Part shown: positions 1-50,431 of the stretch, piece by piece
Layout: each line of letters begins with the position of its first letter
Position numbering within the stretch: position 1 is the first letter of the stretch
From: a virus
Lineage: Duplodnaviria > Caudoviricetes
Virus record (IMG/VR): IMGVR_UViG_3300002092_000005
Coordinates: 1 to 51,930 of that record
DNA length: 51,930 nucleotides
Direction: 5' to 3' (one strand)
Made by a program: the position numbers and the translations under genes
Notes under the pieces: model-generated
Seen by the model: the letters and a program-made list of their open reading frames with translations, nothing else
Told to the model about the DNA's origin: nothing
Database searches by the model: none

Positions 1-236
1 AATAGATTTAGATATTCTTATTTCTGAAGAAATTAAAGGCGAAAACGATTTAAAAAGAAAAAAAATAAAGCTTTGTTTAAACAAAAAAAGCCTTGTAATT
101 CACACTTATAAGGTGCAAAGAAAAGGGCCAGGAATGGTAAGAACCAATGTCAATTGGTGTGGACTTCTTATTGATACTTATGAACAGAGAGTTAAAGAAC
201 GAAACGAAAGACGGAAGTTGGAAAGGGCAAAAAAAA

Positions 237-1889: not shown

Positions 1890-1926
1890 AACCACTCCCC
1901 CTGTGCTGGGAGGAAGCGGCCCAGCA
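1872..1926 (+). other. Tandem hairpins between helicase and primase
   Basis: ggagtgg(1872-1878)/ccactcc(1892-1898) and tgctggg(1904-1910)/cccagca(1920-1926); no U tract follows. Confidence 0.45.
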
Positions 1927-1974
1927 TCATTATCTTAACTAATTTAACCACAAAATCAAAGGAATAGGTGTGCC

Positions 1975-4485
1975 TTGGAAGAAATTAAAAAACAGGCTTT
2001 GCGGGTTCGTGGACAGGGGTTATCGGTGTTCTCAACCAAGGTTGATAAAACACCAGTAATTAAGCGAACTAATCGAATAGTTGAACTTCGAGCTAACCCA
2101 CTATCTGAACTTGAAATTGAGATAGATTTCAGCCATGCAAATGTAGCAGGGATAGCTATAAATTGTGGCCCAGTTGTGGGCAAAGAAAAGGACTTGGAAT
2201 GCCTTGATATCGACTGCCCAAAAGTGGCATTAGATTTCCTTCCTGACTTGGAAGCAACCAGTAAGGAACTACACGATAAACTTTGTGGATGCGTTGAAAC
2301 CACACCATCTGAAGGTTTACACATCTTCTATTACCTTCCATTGGGTAAATCAAAGTGTCGTGAACTAGCGGTAATGTCTACGGATAATGGCAAGAAGTGG
2401 TTAGCCGAAGCAAAGGCTAAAGGATCTACCAAAAAGGTTGCCCCACCATTGATTGAAACAAGGGGTGCGGGTGGATATGTGGTTGGATTCTATTCTCAGG
2501 CAGTCTCAAAAATTGATGGATTAGTTAAGCCATATAAAATGTTGCATGGTGATGTTTCAACTATCCCAATGCTTACCGCTGATGAGCATGAATTTCTAAT
2601 GTCATTTGCTCAGTCATATGATCAGAAAGCAGCAAAGAGATTCATCGAACTTAACAAAGAACCTTACCAGCATAAAGAAATAGGAAAGAAGACAGCGTTG
2701 GATCAATGGCGAGCGGAAACTTCATGGCCCGAAATTCTTCCAGACTCTTACCGAGTGGTTGAAGTCAGGCATGATTACTTCATGGTATGGCATCCAGATT
2801 CGTCAGGCAGAGAACCTAACGCAATTGCAGGGTGCAAAAATGGTGGCATGGATCGCTATTGGAATTTCAGTCCATTGGACTGGAGATTAAGTCCAAACAT
2901 ACCTTTGACTAAAGATTATGTTTACTGCATGAGTCGAGGTTGGCAACCAGGGAGTAGAGAATGGAAAACATTTTACGCACAGGTGTTTGCTAAGTATTCG
3001 ATAGATAAAATTGAAGATGAACCTGTGAATGAATCTAGGTGGGATTTCCTTGAAACAACAAAGTCAGGCAAAGTTAAACAAGTCAGAACTGTAGACATTG
3101 TTCCTGACGATGCCATTTCATTTCCTGGTTGGATCGACACATACATTGACTACTGCATGAGGAACGCATTGTATCCAGAGAAGCGAATTGCTGCTGCATC
3201 TGCATTAGGTATGTTTTCCGCTCTGGTGGGAAGATCCATCATGGGGCCGAATGAACTCAAGCTTAACCTATACATTGTGGTGCTTGGCTTGACAGCTTCG
3301 GGCAAAGATTTCCCACGAAAATTGAACGCTAGAATCTGTATGGAAATTGATAACGCAAGCTTGCTAATGACGAAGGTAGGTTCAAGAGAAGGTCTTGAAG
3401 AGAAGGTGATTCAAGGCCCGAAATTCCTTATGGCAGACGAAGGTGCATTTGATCTTGAGAAAGCTAAATCGGGTGATACAAGGTTCAACGATGTAATGGG
3501 AACGATGCTAGAACTGTTTACATCGAACTACATTAAGAGAAGAGCTAAAGCGGGTGATGCGGATTCAGAAAACTTTATTCGCTATCCATTCCTTTCCATT
3601 ATGACTTCATCAACTCCCGAAGAATATTTCAAGGCACTATCACCTAAGATGCTTCGGTCAGGTTTCTACAATCGCTTGCTAATTCTCCAATCTGCAATCA
3701 GAGGCAGAATGAATCTTCGGGGAATGTCAGTATCAGAACCAATTCCAGAATACTTGGTAGAGGTTGCTGCACGATTGATTGCCATGAATGAAAACCTTGT
3801 GCCTGGGGTGATTAAGGAATTTATGGCAGATACTAAGCTTGATGCACTTGGAAATGCTCCACTTAATCAGATTGAAAGGGATTCAAAAATACTTCTTCTT
3901 GATGAAGATGCGTTAGAGTTTTTTCAAACCCAAGTGTGGGAAAACGATGACCTTTATTCTAAATATCAGAAGAACAGCGAAGAAGAAAAAGCATCTTCAT
4001 GTGCCAGACTTCCTGAGTTAGCTTTGAAAATAGCTTGCCTGTGGGAACTTAGCCAAGACATAAACGCTGACACAATTTCTCTAGCTGGTGTAATGGCTGG
4101 ATTTAAATTTGTTCGTGAGGTTAACAAAAGACAAACTGCTAATACAGTTATGGTGAGCGATACTAAGTTCGGTGAAATCACGGATAAGCTACTAAACATG
4201 ATCAAGGATTCACTAAACGAAATCGAACCAGATGTGTATGGTGTAAAGATGATTGATGCTAAAAGGCATCTCAGGAAGATCGTACACAGCGGGCAATCGG
4301 TTGATGATGCAATCCGATATCTTCAAGATTGCGGTGAAATTTCAATCAGAAAAAGCCGAGATGCTAATGGTGCTGGCTCAATGTATATTGTTATAAATGA
4401 GCAAACACCACAGAGCATGATTGAAACAGTTATCGAAAAAAGGATTCCTAAAGATGGCCAATCACCTTCTCAATCCCAATCCTAG
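1975..4485 (+). CDS. Bifunctional primase-polymerase with C-terminal DUF3987-like helicase domain
   Basis: N-terminal prim-pol motifs (GIAINCG, LDIDC, TPSEGLHIFY, IETRGAGGYVV). C-terminal NLYIVVLGLTASGKD, DEG and SGFYNRLL. Confidence 0.85.
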   Translation: MEEIKKQALRVRGQGLSVFSTKVDKTPVIKRTNRIVELRANPLSELEIEIDFSHANVAGIAINCGPVVGKEKDLECLDIDCPKVALDFLPDLEATSKELHDKLCGCVETTPSEGLHIFYYLPLGKSKCRELAVMSTDNGKKWLAEAKAKGSTKKVAPPLIETRGAGGYVVGFYSQAVSKIDGLVKPYKMLHGDVSTIPMLTADEHEFLMSFAQSYDQKAAKRFIELNKEPYQHKEIGKKTALDQWRAETSWPEILPDSYRVVEVRHDYFMVWHPDSSGREPNAIAGCKNGGMDRYWNFSPLDWRLSPNIPLTKDYVYCMSRGWQPGSREWKTFYAQVFAKYSIDKIEDEPVNESRWDFLETTKSGKVKQVRTVDIVPDDAISFPGWIDTYIDYCMRNALYPEKRIAAASALGMFSALVGRSIMGPNELKLNLYIVVLGLTASGKDFPRKLNARICMEIDNASLLMTKVGSREGLEEKVIQGPKFLMADEGAFDLEKAKSGDTRFNDVMGTMLELFTSNYIKRRAKAGDADSENFIRYPFLSIMTSSTPEEYFKALSPKMLRSGFYNRLLILQSAIRGRMNLRGMSVSEPIPEYLVEVAARLIAMNENLVPGVIKEFMADTKLDALGNAPLNQIERDSKILLLDEDALEFFQTQVWENDDLYSKYQKNSEEEKASSCARLPELALKIACLWELSQDINADTISLAGVMAGFKFVREVNKRQTANTVMVSDTKFGEITDKLLNMIKDSLNEIEPDVYGVKMIDAKRHLRKIVHSGQSVDDAIRYLQDCGEISIRKSRDANGAGSMYIVINEQTPQSMIETVIEKRIPKDGQSPSQSQS

Positions 4486-6028
4486 GAATCGACATAAGGG
4501 CTAAGTTAAAAGCATCTGCAAGGTCAGGAGAGTGTTTGAGTCTACGCTTCATCATGTCTTTAGACTCGACCACTCTTCTTCCGTTCGTATCCACAATGTA
4601 TACAGGTGTTCTGAGTTCTTCCATCATCCTCTCACGCATATGAAGCGGAAGATGCCCGATTGAAACTTTACCTTCCATAGCTAATTCTGCTGCCTCAAAC
4701 CAGAGAGCGGATCTCATATTCGGGAACTCCCGCCACCTTGGTGCTTCACCAGATGAATTAATGCCATAGAACATATAGTCACCCTTGTTATCGACCACAC
4801 CACCACCAACACCACCCTCATCAATAAGCACAGGGATCTTGTATTGTGATTGCCTTGGGTTCTCATATTTTTGGCAATACTCTTTAATCTTTTCTGCGAA
4901 CTCTTTGGTAGACAATCCACGATACTCCTTCGCATCTATGATGCAGCATCCATGCCTGACAACTAAACAGGATCTATCGTCACCGAACCTTGCAGGGTCA
5001 GCACCGATCTGAACAACCCAATCTTTATTGAGCGGAATTGGATCAAGAATTTGTTTAAGTGCCAAAGCACCCCATACCGAGTTGATCGCCTTACTAGGGT
5101 ATCTTCCCAAAACTTGGATATCAAACAGCGGATCTTCAACCATGTAGTTGTGATCATTGAATGTGAAAAACCCTGGCTCAGATTCTTCACCTTCTCTAGC
5201 GGTTCTGCATTCGTTTTTAATGCGGTTCTCTACATACTCATAGTTAATAGCACCTGGAACAAGATCAGCTTTAAAAGCAACATTAGGATGGTCTAAAGCA
5301 GACAGGTGGAACACTTTCCAGTCAGGAGAATTTTCAGCAAAGTATGCTGGTGATGAAGCATCGTATGGGTTAAATATGCAGAACCATAAACAATTCTCTT
5401 TTGATGCTGAAAGCATCGACTCTGCTCGTTCCCAGAATGTGGGTTCAATACCAGATGCTTCGTCAAACAAGATGCACAAACCACCAGCGGAGTGTCTACC
5501 TTGGAACGCATCAGCCTTTTGAGCAGTAAGTCCTTGAATGTAATGCGAGGGATTCTTTTCCAATCGATTTGCCTTGGGCATCCAATTTGGATCTCTTGGT
5601 CTAACCCTGCGTAGTTCTTTGAACACACCATCTTTAATCTGTTGGGCAACAGGTGCTGATATCAAAACTTCTGATGGGGTAAAGTGATCGTGAAACCAAC
5701 TAGCAATAACAGCACACAAAAAAGTTTTGCCTTGGTTATGTGCTGACCTGACCAAAATTTTTCTTTCACCATTGGCAACGGAATTAAATATCTCCATCTG
5801 TTGCGGAGTCAGGGTTATTCCGAGGTATTCGCAATACTCCCCTGGGTCTTTCGGAATCACTATAGTCTTCTGATTCTCCCGATTCACCCTCTTGACTTCT
5901 TGGATCTCCGAAAGCTTCCCCTGCAACGCTGGACTCGATAAGACCTTTTGCCATTTCTTTTGCAAGTTGTTTGTTGAGAAGTTTTTGGAGTTCTTGCTCA
6001 TCGTTTCGTTCCTTATTATTTCGTTCAA
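4448..6028 (-). CDS. terL: Terminase large subunit (true start uncertain, possibly downstream of 6028)
   Basis: Walker A SAHNQGKT, Walker B ILFDEA, nuclease motifs GADPARFGDD, IDEGGVGGG and ESKDMMKRR..SPDLADAF. Confidence 0.92.
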   Translation of the reverse strand: MNEIIRNETMSKNSKNFSTNNLQKKWQKVLSSPALQGKLSEIQEVKRVNRENQKTIVIPKDPGEYCEYLGITLTPQQMEIFNSVANGERKILVRSAHNQGKTFLCAVIASWFHDHFTPSEVLISAPVAQQIKDGVFKELRRVRPRDPNWMPKANRLEKNPSHYIQGLTAQKADAFQGRHSAGGLCILFDEASGIEPTFWERAESMLSASKENCLWFCIFNPYDASSPAYFAENSPDWKVFHLSALDHPNVAFKADLVPGAINYEYVENRIKNECRTAREGEESEPGFFTFNDHNYMVEDPLFDIQVLGRYPSKAINSVWGALALKQILDPIPLNKDWVVQIGADPARFGDDRSCLVVRHGCCIIDAKEYRGLSTKEFAEKIKEYCQKYENPRQSQYKIPVLIDEGGVGGGVVDNKGDYMFYGINSSGEAPRWREFPNMRSALWFEAAELAMEGKVSIGHLPLHMRERMMEELRTPVYIVDTNGRRVVESKDMMKRRLKHSPDLADAFNLALMSIPRIGIEKVIGHL

Positions 6029-8361: not shown

Positions 8362-9825
8362 TTATTCGCCAGAATAGTCAGAACATTTCCAACATAATTG
8401 AACTTTTTCATCATTTCCAGACTGTCTACAAGTTTTGTATATTTTGCATTCGTGTAAAACGCTTCCACCGCACCCACACGAAGCAACTTTTTCTAAAGCC
8501 ATTCCTAGATTGATACAAGGTTTTTGTTTTATTTTTTGTATTTTTCTGACCATCTCTATAGCTTTAGATATATTTTTATCTTCGTTTTCGCTCTCTTTTT
8601 TGCGGTATTCAACTAAAGGATCTTTTAAATTTTCTTCAAAGCTAATAGATTGTACAACTTCTGGAACAGGATTTACTTGGCAATCCTCAATGATAGCTGT
8701 TGGAAATTCCATGCCATAAAATTGAAATACTGGATCATTAGTAAGAAGTCCAGAAAAGTCTGCTTGCATTATAAATGGATTTGCATATTTCAAAACAGTA
8801 ACAGCACCTTTTACCCAAGATCCATCTAAATATTTTGCAGCTACGCAAATAGAACCACCTTTAATAGTTTTTAAAATAACACGATAGCCTTGTGGTGACG
8901 AACCATACTGTATTCTTTGAATGTTTGAAGTAGGAGATTCATCTGGACAACCAACAGTAAGCATGGTTCGATCTGCTCGTTCACCAATGTCTGGCCCAAG
9001 TGCATAACCATCCCAATGTAAACATCCGCAGGTTGCACTATTTTCGCATTCAAACGCATTAACACCCATTTGAAACACGGCTGGAGGAAAAGAATTTTTA
9101 TCTTTAGGAGTAAGCAGACAAACTAAACATGAATATGACCTAGTAAATCCGTTTCTATTTGTAGTAAGATTACAAAGTCCATTTGAGTTTTGATAAGATG
9201 TAGAACAACCAAACACATATTTTTGAAGAGATAGTGTTGCTTTGACATATTTTACTTCTCCACCGCAATCTTCTTGATTAAAAGAAACTGCTGTCAAATC
9301 TGATTCATAACTATTGTAATCCGATTCGCTTGAAAAAACACCAACAGGTTTAAGAAGCATTGTTGTGCTGTTACAACCAACATAAGTAAGGTTTGGCATT
9401 AACCTAGAAGTAGATATAGTTAGACTTATTGCGGATGGAGATATAGCAACAACTGTTGCATCCATCTTTATTTTGTAACCTAAATTTGGGCCAAACTCAC
9501 CAGTATGTGAAGTAACAGTATCAATTGATCCAACCCATGTATTATTTCTTGGACTATCTTCATCGTAATCTGATGGGCAGTTTACTGATATTTGCCACAT
9601 ATTTGGAGCAAACAATCTTGTTCCAATTAGTTCTCCATTACAATCTTCTCTGTACATATTGTATATGACTTGCCCACTCATATACGCATCACCAAGATAG
9701 CAAACTAATGAACAATTTATATCAAAGTTTTTTGCTTCAACTGCATCTGGATCACACAAATTGTAACCAACTGTAGAAACATGATTTTTATGAAGAAGTG
9801 CTGTTCCATTGATTATATAAGCCAT
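8362..9825 (-). CDS. Cys-rich putative tail-tip protein
   Basis: 487-aa ORF in the late operon with a C-terminal Cys cluster (C...SCGCGG...EC...TC...CWKC). Confidence 0.6.
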   Translation of the reverse strand: MAYIINGTALLHKNHVSTVGYNLCDPDAVEAKNFDINCSLVCYLGDAYMSGQVIYNMYREDCNGELIGTRLFAPNMWQISVNCPSDYDEDSPRNNTWVGSIDTVTSHTGEFGPNLGYKIKMDATVVAISPSAISLTISTSRLMPNLTYVGCNSTTMLLKPVGVFSSESDYNSYESDLTAVSFNQEDCGGEVKYVKATLSLQKYVFGCSTSYQNSNGLCNLTTNRNGFTRSYSCLVCLLTPKDKNSFPPAVFQMGVNAFECENSATCGCLHWDGYALGPDIGERADRTMLTVGCPDESPTSNIQRIQYGSSPQGYRVILKTIKGGSICVAAKYLDGSWVKGAVTVLKYANPFIMQADFSGLLTNDPVFQFYGMEFPTAIIEDCQVNPVPEVVQSISFEENLKDPLVEYRKKESENEDKNISKAIEMVRKIQKIKQKPCINLGMALEKVASCGCGGSVLHECKIYKTCRQSGNDEKVQLCWKCSDYSGE

Positions 9826-9827
9826 TA

Positions 9828-10961
9828 CTAAGCACCTACCATAACTTTAAGATTACTAAGAGGAATAAAAGACTGTTGTACTGAATTGTCTTCAGATCCA
9901 AGCTGAGATGGTCTTATTTTAAAATTTATAGGCATAGTTATACTTTTACCAAGGTTCTGCTTAAAATATGTTGTAAAATAATTTTTTGAAGGGTCGTTAT
10001 CTAAAATATATCTATTAACACGATTTTGAAGATACCATCTAACCCTTCCTATTCTTGGACTAGGTATATTTTTTCCAGTAAGAAAAATATTGACTTCTAA
10101 GCCTATGATTTGCCAAGAAGGATTAGTGTATCCAGAATTAGCTTGGGTAAGCTCTGGTATTATTCCTTCATATTCTGGAAGATCAACTACTGGAAGTTTA
10201 AAAGCCATTTCTCCATAAAACAAAACAAAAGCCAATCCGTCAAATTGACCAAGAAATTTCTCACTAATATCGTAAACATTTAGTGGCTCAAGAAACGGAA
10301 GAAAATCCATTTGAGTGGTATCAGCAGTAGACCTATTTATCTTGCTCCCGCTTCCCTCGTAATTTATTTCCGTGTAATAAGGTTCAAGTACATTTCTGTT
10401 TGAATACATCCATCCAGCGGGTTTTCTTATTGTCTCAGAATCGTCAGGGCTATATGGGTAAACACCAGCGTATTCCATTGGGTCAACCAATGGAGAAAGA
10501 ATGTCGGCAGAATTTGCATCTAGAAAATCATAAGCCAATCTGCCTTTTTTTAATTTTGATATGGGATTTATTTTGTGCTGCGTTAAAGGTATAGCAGCAA
10601 AATTATTTTTAAATTTTGGGCCAGAAAAAACAAGACCGCAAACTGTACCAGACCCTTCATTTGTAACGCATTCATACCCACGATTTGACCAAGAGTCAAT
10701 TTCAGATTTATTAAAATAATAATTGTTGAAATCTATAATTGGTTGAGATGAATTACAATTATAAGGAAAACCAGACACAGTTTGATCATATTGAACTTCT
10801 TGAATCCTTTCTGGAGTTCTCCATTGAGTATATCCTTCTTGAAGTTGATTTATGGTTGCATGATCAAATGTTACATAAGCTGTGCAAACATTCATTGGCA
10901 AAAATCTTCTTTGCACTTGCGAACAAGATCCGTTTAATTTTAAACCATATCCATGTTTCAA
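9828..10961 (-). CDS. Hypothetical tail-region protein
   Basis: Long ORF in the late operon. Likely TTG start at 10961, 7 nt after AGGAG and overlapping the upstream TGA. Confidence 0.6.
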   Translation of the reverse strand: MKHGYGLKLNGSCSQVQRRFLPMNVCTAYVTFDHATINQLQEGYTQWRTPERIQEVQYDQTVSGFPYNCNSSQPIIDFNNYYFNKSEIDSWSNRGYECVTNEGSGTVCGLVFSGPKFKNNFAAIPLTQHKINPISKLKKGRLAYDFLDANSADILSPLVDPMEYAGVYPYSPDDSETIRKPAGWMYSNRNVLEPYYTEINYEGSGSKINRSTADTTQMDFLPFLEPLNVYDISEKFLGQFDGLAFVLFYGEMAFKLPVVDLPEYEGIIPELTQANSGYTNPSWQIIGLEVNIFLTGKNIPSPRIGRVRWYLQNRVNRYILDNDPSKNYFTTYFKQNLGKSITMPINFKIRPSQLGSEDNSVQQSFIPLSNLKVMVGA

Positions 10962-11437
10962 AACGATACTCCTGTTATAGCCATTGAAAAAGTGCAAGGC
11001 CCATTGTTCCAATCCATTGACATAGAAAAACTTTCTGAAGAACAATTAGATGAAGTTATAACTCCACCTAAAGCGTAAGCACTTCCTTGAACAACCAATT
11101 GTCTTGCTTGATCTGTTAATGGCATATATTCTGGAACCAATGGGTCAAAAATCGTCAATGTAAACGGAATAGTGTAATTAGGAGTATCCATAGGTGGATT
11201 ATAAATTGCTAAGTCTTCGCAATCTTTTGTTATCCTATTCCAAGTAACTTGCTGTTCTCCACTAGGGAATTGATCGCACAATCCACTTTCAGCAAAATGT
11301 GTTACTCTCCATGTTCCTGTGAAACTTTTTGGTAGTTTACCTTTCCATTCACACATATACATTAACCAATGTGGTGGTGGAGTTTGACCACCTGGATTCG
11401 CATGAGGATCATAACAATTAAAATCTTGATCTGGCAT
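10958..11437 (-). CDS. Hypothetical Cys-containing tail-region protein
   Basis: ORF tightly packed in the operon, with GGAG upstream of the start. Confidence 0.6.
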   Translation of the reverse strand: MPDQDFNCYDPHANPGGQTPPPHWLMYMCEWKGKLPKSFTGTWRVTHFAESGLCDQFPSGEQQVTWNRITKDCEDLAIYNPPMDTPNYTIPFTLTIFDPLVPEYMPLTDQARQLVVQGSAYALGGVITSSNCSSESFSMSMDWNNGPCTFSMAITGVSF

Positions 11438-11924: not shown

Positions 11925-11958
11925 AAAAAAACAGGACACATTTTTAGGTGTGTCCTGT
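11925..11958 (-). terminator. Rho-independent terminator closing the lysis-position cassette
   Basis: Minus strand reads ACAGGACACA-cctaaaaa-TGTGTCCTGT followed by a T run. Confidence 0.75.
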
Positions 11959-11983: not shown

Positions 11984-12196
11984 CTATCGACCACAGCAAC
12001 TTGATCCACGAAGGCTAAAGCGAAGTTTGCCTCCACGGAAGACCTTTGTATCGGTCTTTACTGTTTCGATCTTAATAGTTTTTTCAACCTTTTTTTCGAT
12101 CTGTACTGCGGGTGCAGAACATTGACCATTCGCACATGAACTCTTGCGAATAGGCAGATCAATTACCATTCCAACCGCCAACACTAAACTAAACAT
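11984..12196 (-). CDS. Small exported Cys-rich peptide (70 aa)
   Basis: ATG at 12196 with SD AGGAGG; hydrophobic N-terminus, CANGQC motif, basic tail ending SSCCGR. Confidence 0.65.
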   Translation of the reverse strand: MFSLVLAVGMVIDLPIRKSSCANGQCSAPAVQIEKKVEKTIKIETVKTDTKVFRGGKLRFSLRGSSCCGR

Positions 12197-12233
12197 AATG
12201 CTTCCTCCTAAAGAAAAAAAGTAACCAAGCACA

Positions 12234-13247
12234 TTATATCGACCAGTCGATAGTTCGTGCAGGGTATCCATCAAAATTCGAGAAAGAAAAAACTTCCTCT
12301 AGACAGATTCTATCCATATCCTTGGCTTTAATCCAGTACGAACCTTTAGGCTCGCCAAAATTTCCTGGTGGTGTTCCGTGAGCGTTACCCCAAGAATTTT
12401 GAATCAAAAATATTAATCCAAAATCTGGATGAGTAGTAAAGCCTAAACACGATTGCTGATGCCCCCATGTTTGATTTCTTGATGCTAATTGAATAGCAGG
12501 GTTTCCAGATGGTTTAATTTTAATGTCGCTAAATCCCCACCAAGATGAAGCGATGGTTACAGGGTATCCATGCGATAAAGCCTGTTTAACCTCGTCACTA
12601 TTTTTAAGCTTTGAGGTGCTTTGAACTTTGAACTTATTAGCAGAATTAGAAAGATCAACAGGTGGCTTGTCACCATTTGACCAAGCAGTTTCTGCTGATG
12701 CCCCAAAAGTCCAAGATCCATCTTGTTCTTTAATGGGTTGTGGGCATCTTTCATCTAATGGTGGGCATCCATCTTCATTCAAAGATTCAGCCATAGAACT
12801 GCCAAAAGAACCTTCTCCAGTACCATGCATCCCGCCCCTAACTCTAGACTGTCCATAATTGTAAAGAATGAACGGAACTCGCCATTCCTCAAATGTCTGT
12901 CTCTGAGTAACGATTTCAACTGCTTGAAGCGTTGCCATGACCGCCAATGCACCATGACCTACACATGAGCCTGTCTTTTGATCCCAAGGAAAAAACTCGT
13001 ATCCAGCAGCTTGATTAACCACCTTGTAAAGAAGCGATTCTTTTAAATCTAATGGAGGGCCAGAGATTTGAAAAGGAACAAGCTTCGCATTGAACTTATC
13101 TTGAAGTTCTTTAGGTTGCGTATCAATTGGCAACCATCCGAATTTCTCTGGTAGCATGGTTGATACCGGAGGAATTACTGGTGGAATTACTAGAGATACT
13201 GGTTTCTTTTTTCTATTGCCAAACCTTGGTTGGTTTTCCATAGCCAT
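12234..13247 (-). CDS. Papain-like (C1 family) cysteine protease
   Basis: Catalytic motifs DQKTGSCVGH (Q,C), WGHQQSCLG (H) and IQNSWG (N); SD TAAGGAG. Confidence 0.85.
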   Translation of the reverse strand: MAMENQPRFGNRKKKPVSLVIPPVIPPVSTMLPEKFGWLPIDTQPKELQDKFNAKLVPFQISGPPLDLKESLLYKVVNQAAGYEFFPWDQKTGSCVGHGALAVMATLQAVEIVTQRQTFEEWRVPFILYNYGQSRVRGGMHGTGEGSFGSSMAESLNEDGCPPLDERCPQPIKEQDGSWTFGASAETAWSNGDKPPVDLSNSANKFKVQSTSKLKNSDEVKQALSHGYPVTIASSWWGFSDIKIKPSGNPAIQLASRNQTWGHQQSCLGFTTHPDFGLIFLIQNSWGNAHGTPPGNFGEPKGSYWIKAKDMDRICLEEVFSFSNFDGYPARTIDWSI

Positions 13248-13258
13248 TCTAAAACTCC

Positions 13259-13360
13259 TTATTGCTTGGGGGGAGCGGGTGGCACTACTGGTGCAACTGG
13301 TTTTGGTACTATTGGTTTCTTTTTTCTATCGCCAAATTGTGGTTGGTTTTCCATGCTCAT
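13259..13360 (-). CDS. Unannotated 33-aa peptide MSMENQPQFGDRKKKPIVPKPVAPVVPPAPPKQ, paralogous to the protease N-terminus
   Basis: Hand translation. The ATG overlaps the upstream TGA (ATGA) and the TAA runs into the protease SD (TAAGGAG). Confidence 0.7.
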   Translation of the reverse strand: MSMENQPQFGDRKKKPIVPKPVAPVVPPAPPKQ

Positions 13361-13995
13361 TGCTTTAACTCCTTAGATATTTGAATAAATTCACTTGTCA
13401 AAAGATCTCTAAGCTTTTGATCCAACTTTAACGCACCATCTTTGGGAAGTTTCTGGTTTAATTTTTTTCCAATTACATCCCTAAGATTTGCAAGTTCATT
13501 TTCCATGAACTGTTTATTGATTGTTGTCTTGGCAGCTTTAAAAATATCTGTAAGAAATTCGTAGTCGTTTTTCTGACATTCTTTCGCAAGCTCATCGTAG
13601 AACATAGACAACCATTTTACTTGGTCTTTGTCTTCTTTCGCTGCTGCTGCTTTGATATCTCCATCTGGATTTACTGGTGGAGCGGGTGGAGTTGGAGCGG
13701 GTTCGTCACCGATCACAACAGATGTAAACGCTGGATCAGATGGGCCAGACTCATTGCCAACATACGCAAATAATCTGTATACACCCTGAGTTTGCGAAGT
13801 TACCACCAAAGTCTTAGAATCTTTTAAAAGATCAACAGGGAAAATGTTCAATCCCTTGTCGATTGAAACCCATTTTACAAGTTTTGACTCAGTCTTTGCT
13901 GGAACGCTTATAAACGCTCCCGGTTGACCAGAAACCTTTAAAGGTAGTTCTATAGTTGGAACTTGAAGAAACACTAAAAATAGAAGGTTTATCAT
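13357..13995 (-). CDS. Exported protein: signal-like N-terminus, Ig-like domain, Pro linker, helical domain
   Basis: MINLLFLVFLQ N-terminus; GVYRLFAY beta motif; PAPTPPAPP linker. Confidence 0.65.
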   Translation of the reverse strand: MINLLFLVFLQVPTIELPLKVSGQPGAFISVPAKTESKLVKWVSIDKGLNIFPVDLLKDSKTLVVTSQTQGVYRLFAYVGNESGPSDPAFTSVVIGDEPAPTPPAPPVNPDGDIKAAAAKEDKDQVKWLSMFYDELAKECQKNDYEFLTDIFKAAKTTINKQFMENELANLRDVIGKKLNQKLPKDGALKLDQKLRDLLTSEFIQISKELKQ

Positions 13996-14282
13996 GGTCT
14001 ATTCCTTATTCTTTCTGCCATTATCCTAGAATCTGACAAACAATGTACATTAACCGAGGCCCATTTTTTTGCGTGACCAAAAAGAAAATGACAAGGTCGG
14101 CATAACGATAGTAAATTTTCTGATTCCATCTCTCTAGACGGATCTACCGAGTATGGTATCAGATGGTGGACTTGAAGCAATTCGGGATCATCTTCAAGGC
14201 AAGCAGAACAGTAAGGATTCTTTTCTAAATGTTCTGCTCTAACCTTGGCCCATTGTGATCCCCGATTATAAAAAAACGGAGA
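13992..14282 (-). CDS. HNH endonuclease; open frame extends to 14282 without a canonical start before the N-terminal motifs
   Basis: Frame reads SPFFYNRGSQWAKVRAEHLEKNPYCSAC...LQVHHLIP...NLLSLCRPCH; an in-frame TGA lies at 14283-14285. Confidence 0.75.
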   Translation of the reverse strand, partial: SPFFYNRGSQWAKVRAEHLEKNPYCSACLEDDPELLQVHHLIPYSVDPSREMESENLLSLCRPCHFLFGHAKKWASVNVHCLSDSRIMAERIRNRP

Positions 14283-14917: not shown

Positions 14918-15571
14918 TTAAACAGAAATATAAATTGATGTTACAGTTAAATAAGTCATCCCTGGATAACCGCCACCAATGCTGAAAAGTATAGCCAAAG
15001 AATCACCAGAAGAAATTCCTATTGTTCCAGTAAAACTCATGCCATTGGCATACAAAACACCTTCTATGTAAGTCCCATTGATCGTAACATAACCCATCGC
15101 ACCAGAACTCATCATGTCATAAAGACTAAAATTATAATAAAGAGTTCCGCTAACCGAAGCTTGGTAATTTATTGTCAGCGAGTCATTTACATAACCAGTT
15201 AATGGAGACATCATCGAACCATCACCAGCAACTGTATGACTACTGCCAGTCTCTGAAATCTTGACTAAATTTGGTGTAGGAGTAGGTGTAGGTGTAGGAG
15301 TAGGAGTAGGGCTAGGTGTTGGTGTTGGAGTCGGAGTAGGAGTAGGTGTAGGTGTAGGTGTAGGAGTAGGGCTAGGAGTAGGAGTAGGAGTTGGTGTAGG
15401 AGTCGGTGTGGGTGTGGGTGTCGGGCTAGGGGATGGAGTGGGTGTAGGAGTGGGGGTAGGAGTAGGAGTAGGACTAGGAGTTGGAGTAGGTGTAGGAGTA
15501 GGACTTGGGCTAGGGGTAGGTGCAACATTTTTGATATTTACCACTCTGTTTGTAAAATTAGTTACTGTCAT
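14918..15571 (-). CDS. Protein with long Pro-Thr/Ser stalk and C-terminal beta domain
   Basis: ATG at 15571 follows GGAG and the upstream stop; about 80 residues of (PT/PS)n. Confidence 0.7.
15272..15520 (-). repeat. Degenerate hexamer tandem repeat encoding (Pro-Thr/Ser)n
   Basis: + strand is a run of ggtgta/ggagta/gggcta units. Confidence 0.9.
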
Positions 15572-15572
15572 G

Positions 15573-15902
15573 TTATGAAATCTCCGCACCGAATAAAGAA
15601 AATCCAACTGAACCAGCAGTAGATTGAACAGCAATAACATCTGTTGCAGAAAGAGTTATTCCTATCGTAAGAAAGATTGAATCAGATGCTGCAATCGGTG
15701 CATCATAAGCAATATACATTTCGTCTGAAATCGATACACCCAACTTTTTTACAGCTATACGAAAAGTTTTAGCAGATGCAGTTTGATTGCAAACAACTAA
15801 TGTTGAAACAATAGTGCTGGTTGCTGCTGGAACTGTATACAGATTAGTCAAGCTTGATGGTGAAGGTATAACCTGACCCAAAACTTTATGGACTTGTGGC
15901 AT
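15573..15902 (-). CDS. Small virion structural protein
   Basis: KVLGQ..P.....[19 protein letters not shown] motif seen in tail regions of aquatic phages; TAATG-coupled. Confidence 0.6.
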
Positions 15903-17174: not shown

Positions 17175-18407
17175 TTATGTTTTAATGATGTAATTAATAA
17201 CTATTACTGGTGGCATATTTGTAAAACTTGTAGATGCACCATTGCCATTTCCAGTATTTCCAGCAGTTCCAGTAAACGCATGATTATGTGATGAACCAGC
17301 ACTAGTAGTTCCGTGATTGTGATCTCCAGCAGCGTTCATTACGCTTTCCATGTTGTACCTTTGGAAAGATGAACCCGAAGAAAGCCCCGCACCGCCCCCA
17401 GTTGAAACAAATACCAATGGTTGCCAACCGTTTGTTCCCGTGTGTTGATGACTTCCAGCATTACTCATTGTATGCGTATGTGAAGCATCAGCGGTATTTG
17501 TTCCAGAAGGAGTAAAAGAATGGCTATGTGCTGGCAAATTTGTTTCAGCAAGTGTTGTATTTTCAGAACCTAAAGTATTACCTAAAGTTCTTGCAGTCAA
17601 TCCAGCACCAGTAGAACCCGCCATGATAGGGATTCTTTGAAGCATATTAGGAACATTGAATGTTGTGCTTCCATCACCTAAACCATAAGGGCAATGAAAT
17701 AGTGTGTGTGTTCCAGATTGAGTTCCAGATGTATTAATAGGTGTTGGAACTGCTGCATTTGCTGCTGATGTTGCAAGTCTAAATGTAGTAGTATTTACAT
17801 AGATAACATAATAAAGAGTATTTATTGTCAAGCCAGTTGGCAAAGCACCTGTGGTAGTAAAATATACAATATCTCCTGTTTGAAATCCGTGTGCTGACAA
17901 AGTAACTACTGCTGGAGATGCGATTGTTACTGTAATTGTTCCTCTGCTTGGTGTTATCGTAGAAAACAATGTTGAATATGTAGTTCTAGATACAGCAGAT
18001 CCGTCACATAGTAAATAACCTGTTGGCGGGGAAATTGCTGCAAAAGGCATGATTGCCCCAGTAGGCATTCCAGATGCTGCTGCTGGTGCTGTGCTTTGCC
18101 AAGTTGTACCATTACTGGTAAGAACATTTCCACTTGTACTAGGAGCAACAAAACTTGGGGTACTAGTTCCATTACCAAGAATTACATTGTTCGCTGTTAA
18201 TGTTCCTAATCCTGTTCCACCATTGGCAACAGTTAAAGTTCCAGTATGGTCTGAACGAGCTAAAGACGAAACTAATACATTCGCACTACCAGCAGCATTT
18301 CCAATCCATATCTTACCATCTGCTGCATTAACTCCTACTTCTCCACTCGCTAATGTAGGAGTATTAGAAGCCGTGTAAGATCGTTTTGGTTTAATGGTAT
18401 TAGCCAC
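17175..18407 (-). CDS. Tail fibre with tail-collar domain and HxH metal-binding needle
   Basis: PTGAIMPFA..PPTGYLLCDGSAVSRTTYSTLF and GDGSTTFNVP; five HxH motifs; ends NMPPVIVINYIIKT; GTG start. Confidence 0.85.
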   Translation of the reverse strand: MANTIKPKRSYTASNTPTLASGEVGVNAADGKIWIGNAAGSANVLVSSLARSDHTGTLTVANGGTGLGTLTANNVILGNGTSTPSFVAPSTSGNVLTSNGTTWQSTAPAAASGMPTGAIMPFAAISPPTGYLLCDGSAVSRTTYSTLFSTITPSRGTITVTIASPAVVTLSAHGFQTGDIVYFTTTGALPTGLTINTLYYVIYVNTTTFRLATSAANAAVPTPINTSGTQSGTHTLFHCPYGLGDGSTTFNVPNMLQRIPIMAGSTGAGLTARTLGNTLGSENTTLAETNLPAHSHSFTPSGTNTADASHTHTMSNAGSHQHTGTNGWQPLVFVSTGGGAGLSSGSSFQRYNMESVMNAAGDHNHGTTSAGSSHNHAFTGTAGNTGNGNGASTSFTNMPPVIVINYIIKT

Positions 18408-19429
18408 TAAAAAGTACCCCCATCAACAATCACACCATCAAGAACAGTTGCAGAAAGAACAGTAGTTCCGTTTATTTTAAATGATTTCCCGCTAGCTAGA
18501 TTCACATGATCTGAGAAATCCCAAGAAGTTGTTGCAGCAGTATACAAGATCGTATGATCTGTGGTTGACTTCAAAGTTATACCACCCTGATCTGCCGTGG
18601 ATTCGCTTGGTGTAGTAACTTTTCCAAGCTCAATGTTCTTGTCTGCTACAACTAATGTACTAGAGCTAATTGTAGTGGTAGTACCCTGAACTTCCAATGT
18701 GCCAGTCACAACCACATTACCAGATACTGTACCTCCAGATGTAGACAAATAGCTAAGTGCTGGAATGTCATTTGCAACTAATGCACGAAAAGTTGGTGTT
18801 GCAGCAGATCCAGTTGTTGGGCCTGACCAAACATAATTTGCAGTTTGAGTTGCTAATGCTAATGCAATTGTTCCAGTCGTTGTTACTGGTGTATTAGAAA
18901 CAGAAAGAATTGATGTAGGAACAGAAACACCAACTGAAGTAACTGTGCCAGATCCATATGAGGTAGTATCTAAAGACCATGTATTTGCAGCGGTCTTCTT
19001 TAATAAACCAGTAGTTCCAGACAATGCAGCGATGGCATCAAGATCGCCATCCCATGCTTGAACATTAGTTCCGATTGCTAAGCCCAAAGCGGTTCTTGCA
19101 TCTGATGCTGTTGAACTTCCAGTACCACCTCTGTTAACAGGTAATGTAAATCCAGAAGGAAAAGTAACAGATGTGTTAGTAAAGCTTACAGCGTTGGAAA
19201 AGGTTTTTTCAGCAGTAATAGTTTGGGTTGTTCCAATTGTTACAAATCCACCTGTTCCAGCAATAGCGGTAATAGAAGAAGCAATGCCAGATCCAGCATC
19301 ACCATATCCATAATAAAGAGTATTATCATTTTCGTTATATAACAGTTCTCCGTTATAAATCCCTGTTACACCGCTTACACCCGCTGCACCACTAGAACTT
19401 CTACGCTTAATTCTGATTACATTTGCCAT
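18407..19429 (-). CDS. Tail fibre-like protein with Mtd-N-like N-terminus
   Basis: IRIKR...GELLYNENDNTLYYG; GGTGSSTASDARTALGL; ends DGGTF. Confidence 0.7.
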   Translation of the reverse strand: MANVIRIKRRSSSGAAGVSGVTGIYNGELLYNENDNTLYYGYGDAGSGIASSITAIAGTGGFVTIGTTQTITAEKTFSNAVSFTNTSVTFPSGFTLPVNRGGTGSSTASDARTALGLAIGTNVQAWDGDLDAIAALSGTTGLLKKTAANTWSLDTTSYGSGTVTSVGVSVPTSILSVSNTPVTTTGTIALALATQTANYVWSGPTTGSAATPTFRALVANDIPALSYLSTSGGTVSGNVVVTGTLEVQGTTTTISSSTLVVADKNIELGKVTTPSESTADQGGITLKSTTDHTILYTAATTSWDFSDHVNLASGKSFKINGTTVLSATVLDGVIVDGGTF

Positions 19430-21581: not shown

Positions 21582-24557
21582 CTATACTGGGTTTTGTGTT
21601 GGAACTGGATTTGGTAATCCTTTGAAAAACGGATTGCTTCCAACCAAATTTCTTACTGATTCTTTCGGGTTCTTTGCAAGGCCATCAGCAAATGCTGCTG
21701 CAAGTTCTTCTTTACTAAGCTTTTTAGATATATCTCCAAGCAGATCTTCTTGGCTTTTTGAGTCAGATGCTGCCATCAATGCATTTTTTCTAATTTCATC
21801 ACCAACACTTGATATAGACATTGATTGAACTTCTCTTACTGCTGCACCAGTTGAAGATCCATTCTTTATTCTATTTGGATCATTAGACCTCATGTTCCTT
21901 CCTGTTTGAAGCAATGTATCTCCACCTTTTGCTATACCTTTACCAATTGAACCCATAAAAGGAATTTTTGATATTAAAACGCCAATACCCTTTATAATCG
22001 CTCCTATTGCAGAAACAAAAAGACTTGCAACAGTAGTAATCATGTCTAATGCTATTCCAAGCACAAGACCAAATGCTTTTAAAACACCACCTACAAAATC
22101 TGCAACAGGTATCCAACCAACTAAAACAGAAACAATATCATTAATAGCACCTATAAGAGTTGCAAAACTCTGTATGAGTGGCTTTATAATTTCTGATATT
22201 CCAAGAAACAATGAAGAAACAAGACTTATTACTGGGTTAAGTATTTCTATTAATACAGAACCAAGATCTAATAATGGCCTTACAATATTATCAAAAGCAA
22301 CTGCAACTTTAGATATCGATGGCCCTATTAATTTCATTCCATGATCAACATAGTCGGAAAATCTTCTTAGCAATGGTGTAAGATATATAAATGCTGGAGC
22401 AACAGCCCTTCCAATAACTCCTTGAAGATCATTGAATATAATTTCCAATTTCTGCATTACCGCTGGATTTGCTTTTGCAACAAATGACCCAAATGTTGCT
22501 ATAGCATCACTAGCTATTTTTACAGCACTAGTAAAACTGTTTATAACAATTCCAGAAATGGTTACCGCTGCACCCAATGCTGCACCTACTGGCCCGCCAG
22601 CAGCATAATAACCAACTCCACTAGAACCTCCTCCTCCAATTGAACCGCCAGAAGAACGATATTCAGTTTTTGGTGCATCTTTTCCTTGTTTGTACTGGCT
22701 AATAACTGACTTTAAAAAACTTCCAGAAATGCTGTCTCCAAGTTTTCTTTTGTTTCCCCCGCTGTTTATTGATTCAAGTTGCTTTTTGTTTTCTGGATCT
22801 TGAGAAGCCTTTTTATTTACAACAAACTCGCCTGGAGTAAGCATTGCTGGTTGAGTATCTGTGCCTTTTGGCTTCATTGGATTAGAAGCATCACCACCAT
22901 CAGCAAGATAAGAAACATCTCCACCTTTAGACAATGTTTGTGGTTGCTTGTATCCAACACCTTTAGCTATCATCTTCAAGCCATAGCTAACTAATGGGCC
23001 TTTAAACAAAGGTGTTAGCCTCTGAAAACCAGCAATCATCGAATCTAATTCTTTTTGGGTTCTTTGATTTGCTTGTTCAAGTTGTCTTGCAGCTTGCTCT
23101 TGCTGCTTAACTAAATCGTTGGCAGCTTTTGCTGATTCTTGTGCTGCTTTTGCTGAATCTGATGCTTCTTTCTCTGCTTTTTTTCTAAAATAATCTCTTA
23201 ATACTTTCTCCGCTTTAGCTGCTTCTTCTTCCGCTTTGTTTTTTCTTTCTAATGCTTTTTTAGCATCATCGGCAGCTTGTTCCGCTGCATCAGCAATTGC
23301 TTGTGCTGCATCAGCAATCGCCTGTGCTGCTGCATCAGCAACAGCCTTTTCGTCATTTTCAAAAAGCTTTTTAGGAGGCCCAACAAAAGATTTTGTTCCT
23401 TCTTTTCCAAGCTTTTTTACTTCTTCTTCGTCTTTTTGCCTTTTTTGATCTGTGTTAAATAAATCTTTTGATGGGCCTACAAACTCTGGGCCACTTGGAA
23501 GAGCTTTTTTTCTTTCGTTTTCTTCAAAGTCTTTTTTTAAAGGCCCAACAAACTTTTTGGATTTTTCATTGCCGGATTCAATTACATTCTTTTCTTCTTG
23601 TTCTTTTATTTTTGCTTGCTGTTCTACTGAATTTTTTACATTAGAAATAACCTTAGACCAAGCATCACCAACTTGGTTTATTCCAGTTATTAAAGACGAT
23701 ACATTTACAGGTTTAAGTTTTCTCTGCCTTTCTTGAACTTCTTTTTCGTATTTATCTTTTTCTTGCTTCTCTTTATTTTGCTGGTTGATAAAAAGTTTTT
23801 GAGGAGGCCCAACAAACTCTTTAGTTCCTTCTTTACCAGTTTTTGCAACTTGCTTTTCTTCTTCTTTTCTAGCGTTATCAATGTCTGCTACAGTATTCCT
23901 AACACCAGAAATCATTTTAGACCAAGCATCTCCTGTTTGATTGATACCTTCAATCAAAGAAGAAATCCTTACTGGCTTAACTTTTTCTTGCCTCTTTTCT
24001 ATTTCTTTTTCTCTGGCTTTTTCTTTTGCTAATCTTTCTTTTTCTTGTGGATCAACAGGTTTGGTTTTTTCTTTTGGAGGTGCTTTCTTTTCTGGTTTAG
24101 GAGTTAACGCTCTTTGTAAACGCAAAGCAGATAACTGTGCATTGTTTCTTTGGGTTTGCAATTTTAATTCAGCAGATTCATCTGCTATTTTGTTTTTCTT
24201 TTCTTTTTTTGCTGCTTCTGCTGGGTCTATTACTTTTTCTATCTTTGGAACTTTAGCTTTTGGTTCTGGCTTTACTTCCGTCTTTGTTTCTTTTTCTTTT
24301 ACAACTTCTTTAGTTGTTGTTTCCTTGACCTTGGTTGGCTGTTTTGCTGTCTTTTCTGGCTTGGCTACTACTTGGACTTTAATTGACTTAATTGCGTTTA
24401 CAAGGGTTGTTTGAAGCCTTTTGATTGCTGTAGTCAAACCATTAAAGCTTTTGGTGAAATCCCTCGAACCCGCCTTAACGCTCTGGGCGATATTTTCTAC
24501 TGCACCAACCAGATCATTTGTCATCTCGTCATCTGATTTTAATGGAATATCTGCCAT
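21582..24557 (-). CDS. Tape measure protein
   Basis: Longest ORF, located after the tail chaperone; amphipathic helical C-terminal half; GTDTQPAMLTPGEFVV motif. Start placed at MADIPLK (TAATG overlap). Confidence 0.8.
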   Translation of the reverse strand: MADIPLKSDDEMTNDLVGAVENIAQSVKAGSRDFTKSFNGLTTAIKRLQTTLVNAIKSIKVQVVAKPEKTAKQPTKVKETTTKEVVKEKETKTEVKPEPKAKVPKIEKVIDPAEAAKKEKKNKIADESAELKLQTQRNNAQLSALRLQRALTPKPEKKAPPKEKTKPVDPQEKERLAKEKAREKEIEKRQEKVKPVRISSLIEGINQTGDAWSKMISGVRNTVADIDNARKEEEKQVAKTGKEGTKEFVGPPQKLFINQQNKEKQEKDKYEKEVQERQRKLKPVNVSSLITGINQVGDAWSKVISNVKNSVEQQAKIKEQEEKNVIESGNEKSKKFVGPLKKDFEENERKKALPSGPEFVGPSKDLFNTDQKRQKDEEEVKKLGKEGTKSFVGPPKKLFENDEKAVADAAAQAIADAAQAIADAAEQAADDAKKALERKNKAEEEAAKAEKVLRDYFRKKAEKEASDSAKAAQESAKAANDLVKQQEQAARQLEQANQRTQKELDSMIAGFQRLTPLFKGPLVSYGLKMIAKGVGYKQPQTLSKGGDVSYLADGGDASNPMKPKGTDTQPAMLTPGEFVVNKKASQDPENKKQLESINSGGNKRKLGDSISGSFLKSVISQYKQGKDAPKTEYRSSGGSIGGGGSSGVGYYAAGGPVGAALGAAVTISGIVINSFTSAVKIASDAIATFGSFVAKANPAVMQKLEIIFNDLQGVIGRAVAPAFIYLTPLLRRFSDYVDHGMKLIGPSISKVAVAFDNIVRPLLDLGSVLIEILNPVISLVSSLFLGISEIIKPLIQSFATLIGAINDIVSVLVGWIPVADFVGGVLKAFGLVLGIALDMITTVASLFVSAIGAIIKGIGVLISKIPFMGSIGKGIAKGGDTLLQTGRNMRSNDPNRIKNGSSTGAAVREVQSMSISSVGDEIRKNALMAASDSKSQEDLLGDISKKLSKEELAAAFADGLAKNPKESVRNLVGSNPFFKGLPNPVPTQNPV

Positions 24558-25332
24558 TATATTATTCCTGGTGGTACGCTTCCAAATTGCTTTATCCAAG
24601 AAGACTTCATCTTGGCTTCATTAACCCCTAGAGATGCTCCCATTTTCATAAAATTAAGGTATTTTTGCAACAGCATATCTTCAACAGGAACGATTTTCTT
24701 TCTAGTATCCCATTCATGCTTTTCGTCAGGAATGGAAACAGGAACACCCTTGTCATCTCTCCTTCGATAATACAACTCAACTATCTGCCTATCGGTTAAC
24801 TGCTCAATCTCCCAAGGCCGAAGGAGATAAGGTTTATCCATCAAATTTACATAGTAGGTTTTTAAATTAGGTGGAGGGATTGGTTCTTTTGGGTTAAAAG
24901 ATCCGTTACCTACACCTTCTTGCCGTTTGGGAATGATTTATCCCTAACGATTTCCATGACTGCTTCAAACCTTTCATTCTCAGCAAGCATGACATCTTGA
25001 ACTTCATTCTCAGGTGCTGAAAACAATATAGATGCAAATGCCAATGCTCCAGATGGAGTTGATAATGCTGCTATAGAATTTTCACTACCAAATGAATAAA
25101 TTCCGCTCGCAATATCTCTAGTTACAGAAGAAATTGCTTCACGGAATTCAACAGGTTCAAGTCTATCTTTCATTGAAAAAACAGAATCGAGAGCTTTCTT
25201 CTCCATTCGCTTTTCAAATTCAGCTTTAACTTTTTGAGTAATTAATCCAGCGGTATATTTTTTTCCATTATATTCAATGGTCAAAGAACCTTCACCGCTG
25301 GAGTTCAACAAATTTCCAACTGTATCTGCCAT
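24557..25332 (-). CDS. Tail assembly chaperone pair: G (25332-24910) and frameshift product GT (to 24557)
   Basis: Located between tail tube and TMP. The -1 frame after C CCA AAC is open (RQEGVGNGSFNPKEPIPPPNLKTYYVNL) and joins the 24844-24557 ORF. Confidence 0.8.
24925..24931 (-). other. -1 programmed ribosomal frameshift heptamer CCCAAAC
   Basis: X XXY YYZ in the correct phase (ttC CCA AAC), followed by four sense codons and then the G stop. Confidence 0.8.
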
Positions 25333-50346: not shown

Positions 50347-50431
50347 AACCACTCCCCCTGTGCTGGGAGGAAGCGGCCCAGCATCATTATCTTAACTAAT
50401 TTAACCACAAAATCAAAGGAATAGGTGTGCC

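Follow-up and report, generated by a model that had tools for sequence, protein, structure and literature searches.

A free-standing duplicate of a protease's N-terminal part in a lake phage: a possible micro-gene born by partial tandem duplication

The window analysed here is the complete IMG/VR virus record IMGVR_UViG_3300002092_000005 (51,930 bp) of a siphovirus-like, tailed lake phage (Duplodnaviria; Caudoviricetes). Its minus strand carries a mini open reading frame (mini-ORF) of 33 codons, located between a 212-aa gene and the gene of a 337-aa cysteine protease. The mini-ORF is a stand-alone copy of the N-terminal region of this protease and probably a duplication-born micro-gene. Comparison with the second known version of the arrangement (locus L001) unveiled that the nucleotide changes within the mini-ORF are almost exclusively synonymous. 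From this constraint and from the start signals we infer that the mini-ORF is probably translated and selected as a peptide, although this is far from assured. The complete reading, in which a young, lineage-specific micro-gene encodes a competitor of the protease's own tail, is put forward tentatively and falls somewhat short of being probable.

Mini-ORF, direct repeat and start signals

The elements under study are located in the window as follows:

13259..13360, minus strand: mini-ORF of 33 codons and a TAA; first copy of the protease 5' end
13310..13361: direct-repeat copy at the mini-ORF start, family D1
13197..13248: direct-repeat copy at the protease start, family D1
13369..13374, minus strand: AAGGAG Shine-Dalgarno sequence of the mini-ORF, 8 nt before its ATG and within the last codons of the upstream gene
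13255..13260, minus strand: AAGGAG Shine-Dalgarno sequence of the protease, 7 nt before its ATG and overlapping the mini-ORF stop
13143..13247, minus strand: protease codons 1-35, N-terminal extension with a motif and a Pro/Val-rich spacer, predicted local distance difference test (pLDDT) <50; the region copied by the mini-ORF
12234..13247, minus strand: predicted xylellain-type papain-fold cysteine peptidase, 337 aa, assigned by conserved residues, profile and Foldseek

An earlier note, made from the letters of the window, had described a stand-alone 33-aa ORF that repeats the start of the protease, and this description held. The ORF at 13259-13360 (minus strand) translates to MSMENQPQFGDRKKKPIVPKPVAPVVPPAPPKQ, and a repeat search returned two direct copies over 52 nt with 85% identity and a spacing of 113 (13197-13248 versus 13310-13361). 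The repeated stretch comprises the ribosome-binding site (RBS), the start codon and the first ~16 codons of the protease gene, whose product begins with MAMENQPRFGNRKKKPVSLVIPPVIPP. In both repeat copies the ATG is preceded by AAGGAGTT, and the opening 48 coding nucleotides of mini-ORF and protease are identical at 41 of 48 positions. When the whole 51,930-bp genome was searched in six frames with the protease as query, the mini-ORF was the sole second match (E 1.3e-6, 49% over 39 residues). A loose regular expression of the N-terminal motif found the two known copies and one unrelated site at 43354 in the genome, so that the motif is not a signal shared among the phage proteins. An assembly artefact as source of the duplication was ruled out, because independent assemblies (the IMG/VR contigs L001 and L014 and the Logan runs X4 and X6) contain the same duplication. 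A fusion of mini-ORF and protease by read-through or frameshifting was rejected as well: the distance between the two starts is 113 nt in the window versus 124 nt in L001, and the frame relation of both ORFs therefore differs between the two genomes.

Along the minus strand the 212-aa gene is followed by the mini-ORF and then by the protease gene. The ATG of the mini-ORF shares an ATGA (13357-13360 on the coding strand, tcat on the plus strand) with the TGA of the upstream gene. Its TAA (13261-13259) overlaps the AAGGAG of the protease (13260-13255) in a combined TAAGGAG at 13261-13255. Both couplings had been pointed out before and are present as described; together they form the geometry of a coupled leader, with the start on the upstream stop and the stop at the RBS of the next gene. 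The phage uses Shine-Dalgarno (SD) starts, an SD core of at least 4 nt between -20 and -4 being found before 29 of its 66 gene starts versus 7.8% of random positions. The complete AAGGAG hexamer precedes six of the 66 genes, two of which are the mini-ORF and the protease. The start signal of the mini-ORF belongs to the strongest class in this phage and is combined with the ancestral stop/start overlap; with its full AAGGAG the mini-ORF may well be translated, as the earlier note had suggested. In L001 the SD of the protease is weakened to TGGAG, and its spacer measures 13 nt versus 11 nt in the window. RNA structure calculated for the mini-ORF stop/protease start and for the ancestral junction gave z values of -0.66, -0.77, +1.24 and +0.60, none of them beyond chance.

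Contigs of the metatranscriptome run X12 cover 12234-13136 and 13415-13995 and none lies on 13137-13414, a loose end being found behind 13136. These two contigs derive from a relative in which protease and upstream gene are ~93% similar and the N-tail differs, and RNA and carried-over DNA are indistinguishable in such contigs.

Distribution among relatives and coding constraint

The survey of relatives comprised 31 viral loci, 22 metagenome loci (many of which are the same contigs as viral ones) and one contig of a metagenome-assembled genome (MAG). The catalytic motif is present in 54 loci, while L029 and L050 do not extend to it. They provide 35 distinct junctions between the upstream gene and the protease with the window included, and 36 with the MAG contig (L073). 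The mini-ORF was found in two of the 36 distinct junctions, namely in the window and in L001. In the remaining 34 the stop codon of the upstream gene overlaps the protease ATG directly, 25 times as TAATG and eight times as ATGA, plus L053. The latter reads TAATG as well, its apparent 269-nt gap being false and originating from an in-frame stop inside the protease. In relatives without the duplication, the 212-aa gene thus invariably shares such an overlap of stop and start with the protease gene. Since 34 of 36 junctions are devoid of the mini-ORF, it is not required by the protease.

Four further loci (L014, L032, L056 and L057) have the same sequence as L001, with 0 mismatches over 3,934 nt between L001 and L014, both of which are IMG/VR contigs from samples other than that of the window. 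The mini-ORF of L001 encodes 36 aa (MSMENQPQFGDRKKKPIVPKPVAPVVPPTPPEPPKQ). From the Logan runs, X4 yielded a 391-nt contig over 13113-13503 with 0 differences from the window, and X6 a 3,083-nt contig that spans 12234-13935 with 120 differences. The sole gap of the X6 contig across 1,702 nt is a 9-nt insertion behind 13271, which converts PPAPP to PPAPPAPP on the coding strand; this contig is a third mini-ORF lineage. In IMG/VR a degenerate DNA pattern for PIVPKPVAPV retrieved the two known contigs only, and a scan with the junction pattern gave 15 loci, 13 of which were unrelated chance matches, and no further carrier. The scan of genome contigs added one relative, L073, without the duplication. 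The earlier note had proposed a look into homologous cassettes: the mini-ORF is absent from nearly all of them, and its frame is kept across the known indels.

L073 is an 8,520-bp contig of a GTDB MAG and the sole bacterial-genome match to the protease family (78% identity, same upstream gene). Its bin is titled Flavipsychrobacter stenotrophus, which is a weak host hint at best. Clear Shine-Dalgarno usage would be unusual for a Bacteroidota host.

Selection was assessed in one pairwise comparison, window versus L001, whose protease genes share 91.6% nucleotide identity. According to the Nei-Gojobori method, the proportions of synonymous (pS) and non-synonymous (pN) differences amount to 0.415 and 0.026 for the mini-ORF, 0.367 and 0.022 for the upstream gene and 0.280 and 0.030 for the protease. 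The protease's own tail (codons 1-36) reaches a pN of 0.084 and is less constrained than the mini-ORF. When the two mini-ORFs are aligned by codons in the most parsimonious way, 8 positions differ, seven of which are synonymous third-position changes (D11, V18, V26, P27, P28, codon 29 and P33), whereas a single first-position change is non-synonymous (A29T). Simulating 8 random substitutions in 200,000 trials gave one amino-acid change or none in a fraction of 4.7e-4. A run of 28 residues is the same in both versions, although 5 synonymous changes fall within it. Since the synonymous divergence between window and L001 is about 0.3-0.4, a neutral stretch of 99 nt would be expected to carry ~30 differing sites spread over all codon positions, whereas 8 were observed, 7 of them at third positions. 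Furthermore, the residues Q8, D11, KKK and PKPVAP are specific to the mini-ORF and common to window and L001; therefore the constraint acts on the mini-ORF itself and is not borrowed from protease alleles.

The indels point in the same direction. The length difference between the mini-ORFs of window and L001 is an in-frame 9-nt indel, and the frame is kept across both known indels (window/L001 and X6, each 9 nt), so that no frameshift occurs in three lineages. The adjoining spacer of 11-13 nt between the mini-ORF stop and the protease ATG, in contrast, shows two single-base indels between window and L001. Overall, the pattern of the mini-ORF is that of the genes on both sides and suggests a coding sequence under purifying selection. 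The dN/dS check called for in the earlier note hence favours a selected coding sequence, with 7 synonymous changes to 1 non-synonymous change.

Protease, copied tail and rival explanations

The assignment of the downstream gene to a C1-like protease, likewise proposed before, is supported by fold and catalytic residues, and we regard the 337-aa protein as a predicted C1-type (papain-fold, xylellain-type) cysteine peptidase. In an alignment with 20 homologues Q90, C95 (TGSCVG), H263 and W286 are invariant and N284 is near-invariant (at least 90%). The catalytic Cys is thus embedded in a G-S-C motif with the oxyanion-hole Gln a few residues upstream. The protease profile matches xylellain (3ois) with E 7.5e-6 across the catalytic residues and aligns with the GH...NSWG of xylellain. 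A Foldseek search with the AlphaFold2 (AF2) model (pLDDT 81) returned 251 chains at E<=0.001, with 3ois at the top (E 5e-12), followed by cathepsins B, S, K and L and chymopapain. Xylellain is therefore the best match of the protease by profile and by fold, a likeness to xylellain-type C1A enzymes which is limited in that the Pfam Peptidase_C1 model was not reached at E 0.01; in fact, 0 Pfam families at E<=0.01 and 0 PHROGs were obtained for this protein. As far as described in PMC10380794, Myoviridae and Siphoviridae have taken up C1A peptidases of the xylellain type, and the presence of these enzymes in tailed phages is already published.

Pfam scans of 67 + 7 ORFs of the genome found no recognisable lysozyme, amidase or CHAP enzyme. 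Because no recognisable lysin appeared among the scanned ORFs and because the protease is located after the tail-fibre genes, it may be considered a candidate lysis enzyme. In two relatives the protease frame is interrupted: the ORF at L047:1204-1860 stops after 218 aa, and L053:1204-1413 has an in-frame TAA at about codon 70. Both could be pseudogenes or assembly errors.

The part of the protease that was copied is its N-terminal extension. Residues 1-35 are the sole long unstructured stretch in the AF2 model (pLDDT<50) and are predicted to be disordered. In close relatives the extension measures about 15 to 45 residues and begins with the conserved M-E-x-x-P-x-F-G-[DE]-R-basic (MENQPxFGxRKK; MENQPxFGxRKKKP). 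It ends at a conserved K-F-G-W-L-P-I, the FGW anchor, and between both anchors lies a hypervariable, Pro/Val/Glu-rich spacer ranging from almost nothing to about 25 residues. Within the first ~45 codons of the L004, L005, L016 and L035 proteases (339, 339, 343 and 347 aa) the number of VVPP/VEPP units differs, which is a slippage-type length change in a Pro-codon repeat. The mini-ORF matches residues 1 to about 31 of the 35-residue extension, i.e. it carries the N-terminal motif and part of the spacer, without the FGW anchor and without the structured residues 36-90. Distant homologues (32-41% identity) begin at the FGW anchor and lack a tail.

The earlier note had related the copied leader to the inhibitory propeptides of C1 proteases, and this part of its proposal is not supported. 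As only the motif and part of the spacer were copied and the structured pre-catalytic residues 36-90, which would make a likelier xylellain-like pro-region, lie outside the duplicated part, the duplicated segment is, judged from sequence and model, not a C1 propeptide in the I29 sense. It corresponds to a disordered, hypervariable extension, and neither the extension nor the mini-ORF gave an I29 or other Pfam match. That the peptide is a true I29-like propeptide inhibitor blocking the active-site cleft in trans is consequently very unlikely. The papain fold of the enzyme would speak for it, and the Phe-Gly of the motif would suit the S2-S1 site of papain-type enzymes. I29 propeptide-like inhibitors are, however, helical proteins of about 60-110 aa, whereas the mini-ORF encodes 33 aa, predicted to be disordered, and not a folded helical domain (pLDDT<50 for the homologous residues 1-35). 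Furthermore, the conserved, structured residues 36-90 preceding the catalytic Cys are missing from it, and distant homologues do entirely without such a tail.

Stand-alone propeptide-like inhibitors of papain-type cysteine proteases do exist in animals, namely CTLA-2alpha, Drosophila crammer and Bombyx BCPI of MEROPS family I29, as far as outlined in PMC4089206. According to the same account these are separate small genes whose products resemble the N-terminal region of papain-family enzymes and act in trans, which is the likeness to the mini-ORF, where a trans action is proposed. The I29 inhibitors, helical and about 70-110 aa long, are folded and share homology with the genuine cathepsin-L propeptide, whereas the mini-ORF copies a disordered, hypervariable extension, is found in a phage and is confined to a few very close genomes. 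In mycobacteriophage Ms6, Gp1 works through the first 60 residues of LysA and affects its export and stability, as far as reported in PMC6116114. Here, too, the gene of a small protein lies immediately upstream of that of a phage lytic enzyme, and the latter's N-terminal region is involved (PMC6116114). Gp1 is, however, not a copy of the LysA N-terminus, whereas the mini-ORF is a paralogue of the protease tail, and the protease is a lysin candidate only. In the open-access literature, surveyed non-exhaustively, no phage mini-ORF of such kind was found, and none ahead of a xylellain-type gene.

With respect to the origin of the copy, the mini-ORF is over its full length nearer to the 5' tails of the L035, L004, L005 and L016 proteases than to the tail of its own gene. 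In numbers, 80 of 97 aligned nucleotides agree with the L035 protease tail versus 70 of 96 with the copy downstream. The mini-ORF further shares with this L035/L004/L005/L016 group the form of its junction, an ATGA combined with an upstream protein that ends in ...KELKQ. Window and L001 are sisters in the upstream-gene tree (support by the Shimodaira-Hasegawa-like approximate likelihood ratio test, SH-aLRT, 84), while in the protease-core tree L002 is the sister of L001 (SH-aLRT 100) inside a clade of window, L001 and L002 (96). L002 is a mosaic without duplication, whose protease core belongs with L001 and whose upstream gene and N-tail belong elsewhere. Since the kinship of L002 with L001 holds for the core and does not extend to the upstream gene and tail, the stop/start overlap junction appears to be a recombination hot spot. 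Given recombination at this junction, an unequal exchange between diverged co-infecting genomes would be likelier than simple slippage, and most likely the duplication arose in this way.

Based on these data we propose the following course of events. A segment comprising the last ~17 nt of the upstream gene (the source of the AAGGAG) together with the start codon and the initial ~31-34 codons of the protease would have been tandemly duplicated. Probably, relatives that differed in their N-tail alleles had recombined unequally during co-infection. Copy 1 would have retained the ancestral overlap with the upstream stop and become a cistron of 33-36 codons, and copy 2 would head the intact protease, now initiated from the AAGGAG that overlaps the mini-ORF stop. 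The resulting peptide would be translated and held by purifying selection. As it would present in free form the motif that the protease carries on a tether (MENQPxFGxRKKKP), followed by a Pro-rich spacer, it may compete with the tail of the protease for the site that binds the motif, be it the substrate cleft or another partner. Such a competition would delay or redirect the protease and thereby tune the time or place of its action. That the motif is conserved and its tether hypervariable suggests a function in regulation or docking, and a role of the peptide as competitor or decoy in trans is plausible. A more specific version, in which the peptide is a pseudo-substrate, decoy or competitor in trans that times the late activation of a possibly lytic protease, as a viral, disordered counterpart of the I29 inhibitors, appears improbable.

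Several observations weigh against the proposed micro-gene. The mini-ORF is missing from 34 of the 36 distinct junctions, and L002, whose protease core is sister to that of L001, has no mini-ORF; since L002 manages without it, the mini-ORF is dispensable and an L002-type protease core works alone. AF2 does not place the homologous tail on the protease core (residues 1-35 pLDDT<50). The peptide is known from sequence alone, and the codon-by-codon comparison is limited to two versions, window and L001. The X6 contig was read in this region for gaps only, and an internal stop is possible in its mini-ORF. The 9-nt indels lie within a 9-nt-periodic Pro-codon repeat, so that slippage is in-frame by construction. 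A complex prediction of the 33-aa peptide with protease residues 36-337 (score 0.00, controls not run) is evidence neither way.

Two further explanations, each of which we consider unlikely, dispense with a function of the peptide. The mini-ORF could be a neutral duplication scar, an undecayed by-product of a protease 5' end that is prone to recombination and slippage, with the peptide idle. Its occurrence in two of 36 distinct junctions, the hypervariable N-tail with its repeat-number variants (VVPP units; L004, L005, L016 and L035) and the recombination exactly at the junction seen in the trees (L002) are in line with such a scar, as is the closer match to the L035 tail (80/97) than to its own copy (70/96), which an inter-genome crossover predicts. 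A scar should, however, have collected roughly 30 differences between window and L001 instead of 8 with 7 at third positions, and the lack of any frameshift in three lineages stands against the two 1-nt indels of the adjoining spacer. Alternatively, the mini-ORF may act in cis as a translational relay which merely passes ribosomes on to the protease RBS, the peptide being a by-product. The stop/start overlap (TAATG or ATGA) is a classic coupling arrangement and universal in relatives without the duplication. The mini-ORF keeps this overlap, its stop lies on or directly beside the next SD, the spacer measuring 11-13 nt, and frame and end-point of the ORF are retained in window and L001; with the ATGA at its start and its stop within the RBS of the next gene it thus resembles coupled leader or bridging ORFs. 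Yet a pure relay needs an open frame and not a fixed sequence, whereas the amino-acid sequence of the mini-ORF is conserved through synonymous change, with 28 consecutive residues unchanged. Furthermore, a strong AAGGAG of its own precedes the protease gene in the window, and the protease start is not hidden by RNA structure (z -0.66, -0.77).

If the peptide is functional, the mini-ORF would be a dated example of micro-gene birth by partial tandem duplication that is already under coding constraint. No more than a few percent of sequence divergence would separate it from its birth, and the ancestral junction state persists in dozens of sister genomes. It would also offer a handle on the little-characterised phage-borne xylellain-type cysteine proteases, since a free copy could probe the role of the tail. 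If the peptide is not functional, the locus shows that stop/start-overlapped phage genes tolerate duplication via a new RBS recruited from the duplicated gene end.

Genome setting

The mini-ORF lies in a minus-strand gene block without assignments between the tail fibres and the terminase. The following features surround it:

4448-6028: large terminase
11931..11958, minus strand: terminator-like hairpin with a 10-12 bp stem and a T-run, closing the gene block with the mini-ORF
11984..12274, minus strand: ORF of 96 aa that contains a single hydrophobic segment and a Cys-rich tail, overlapping the protease 3' end
13357..13995, minus strand: upstream gene, 212 aa, with a predicted Ig-like beta-sandwich, a Pro-rich linker and a four-helix C-terminal domain (AF2)
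17175-19429: tail-collar and fibre proteins
21582-24599: tape-measure protein
27372-28589: capsid protein
30230-32128: portal, lambda-type

The 212-aa upstream protein is strongly conserved (mean column identity 80% over 18 relatives), and its AF2 model (pLDDT 78) has strands at 20-95 and helices at 114-211. Pfam and PHROG searches with it gave no match. A chagasin-like inhibitor was considered for this protein and rejected, the fold search having returned generic Ig-like matches only. The 96-aa ORF, for which no family match was found in Pfam or PHROGs, is the final gene ahead of the terminator-like hairpin. Downstream of this hairpin lie the genes of a Cys-rich 487-aa protein (8362-9825, minus strand) and a 405-aa protein (9828-11045, minus strand), both without a Pfam or PHROG match.

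Just upstream of the 212-aa gene, a 62-aa ORF (13992-14180, minus strand) gave a partial match to the HNH endonuclease family (PF01844, E 2e-5) which covers profile positions 14-41 of 47. Probably, this ORF represents a remnant, or else a homing-endonuclease-like gene of very small size. Between the tail-fibre genes and the small membrane proteins, a protein of 240 aa is encoded (14918-15640, minus strand) that contains ~110 residues of Pro-Thr/Pro-Ser repeats in one run. The record is bounded by a direct terminal repeat (1-3473 / 48458-51930) of 3,473 bp with 0 mismatches, which leaves a unique genome of 48,457 bp when the repeat is counted once. The repeat holds a complete 580-aa helicase gene (147-1889 and 48604-50346).

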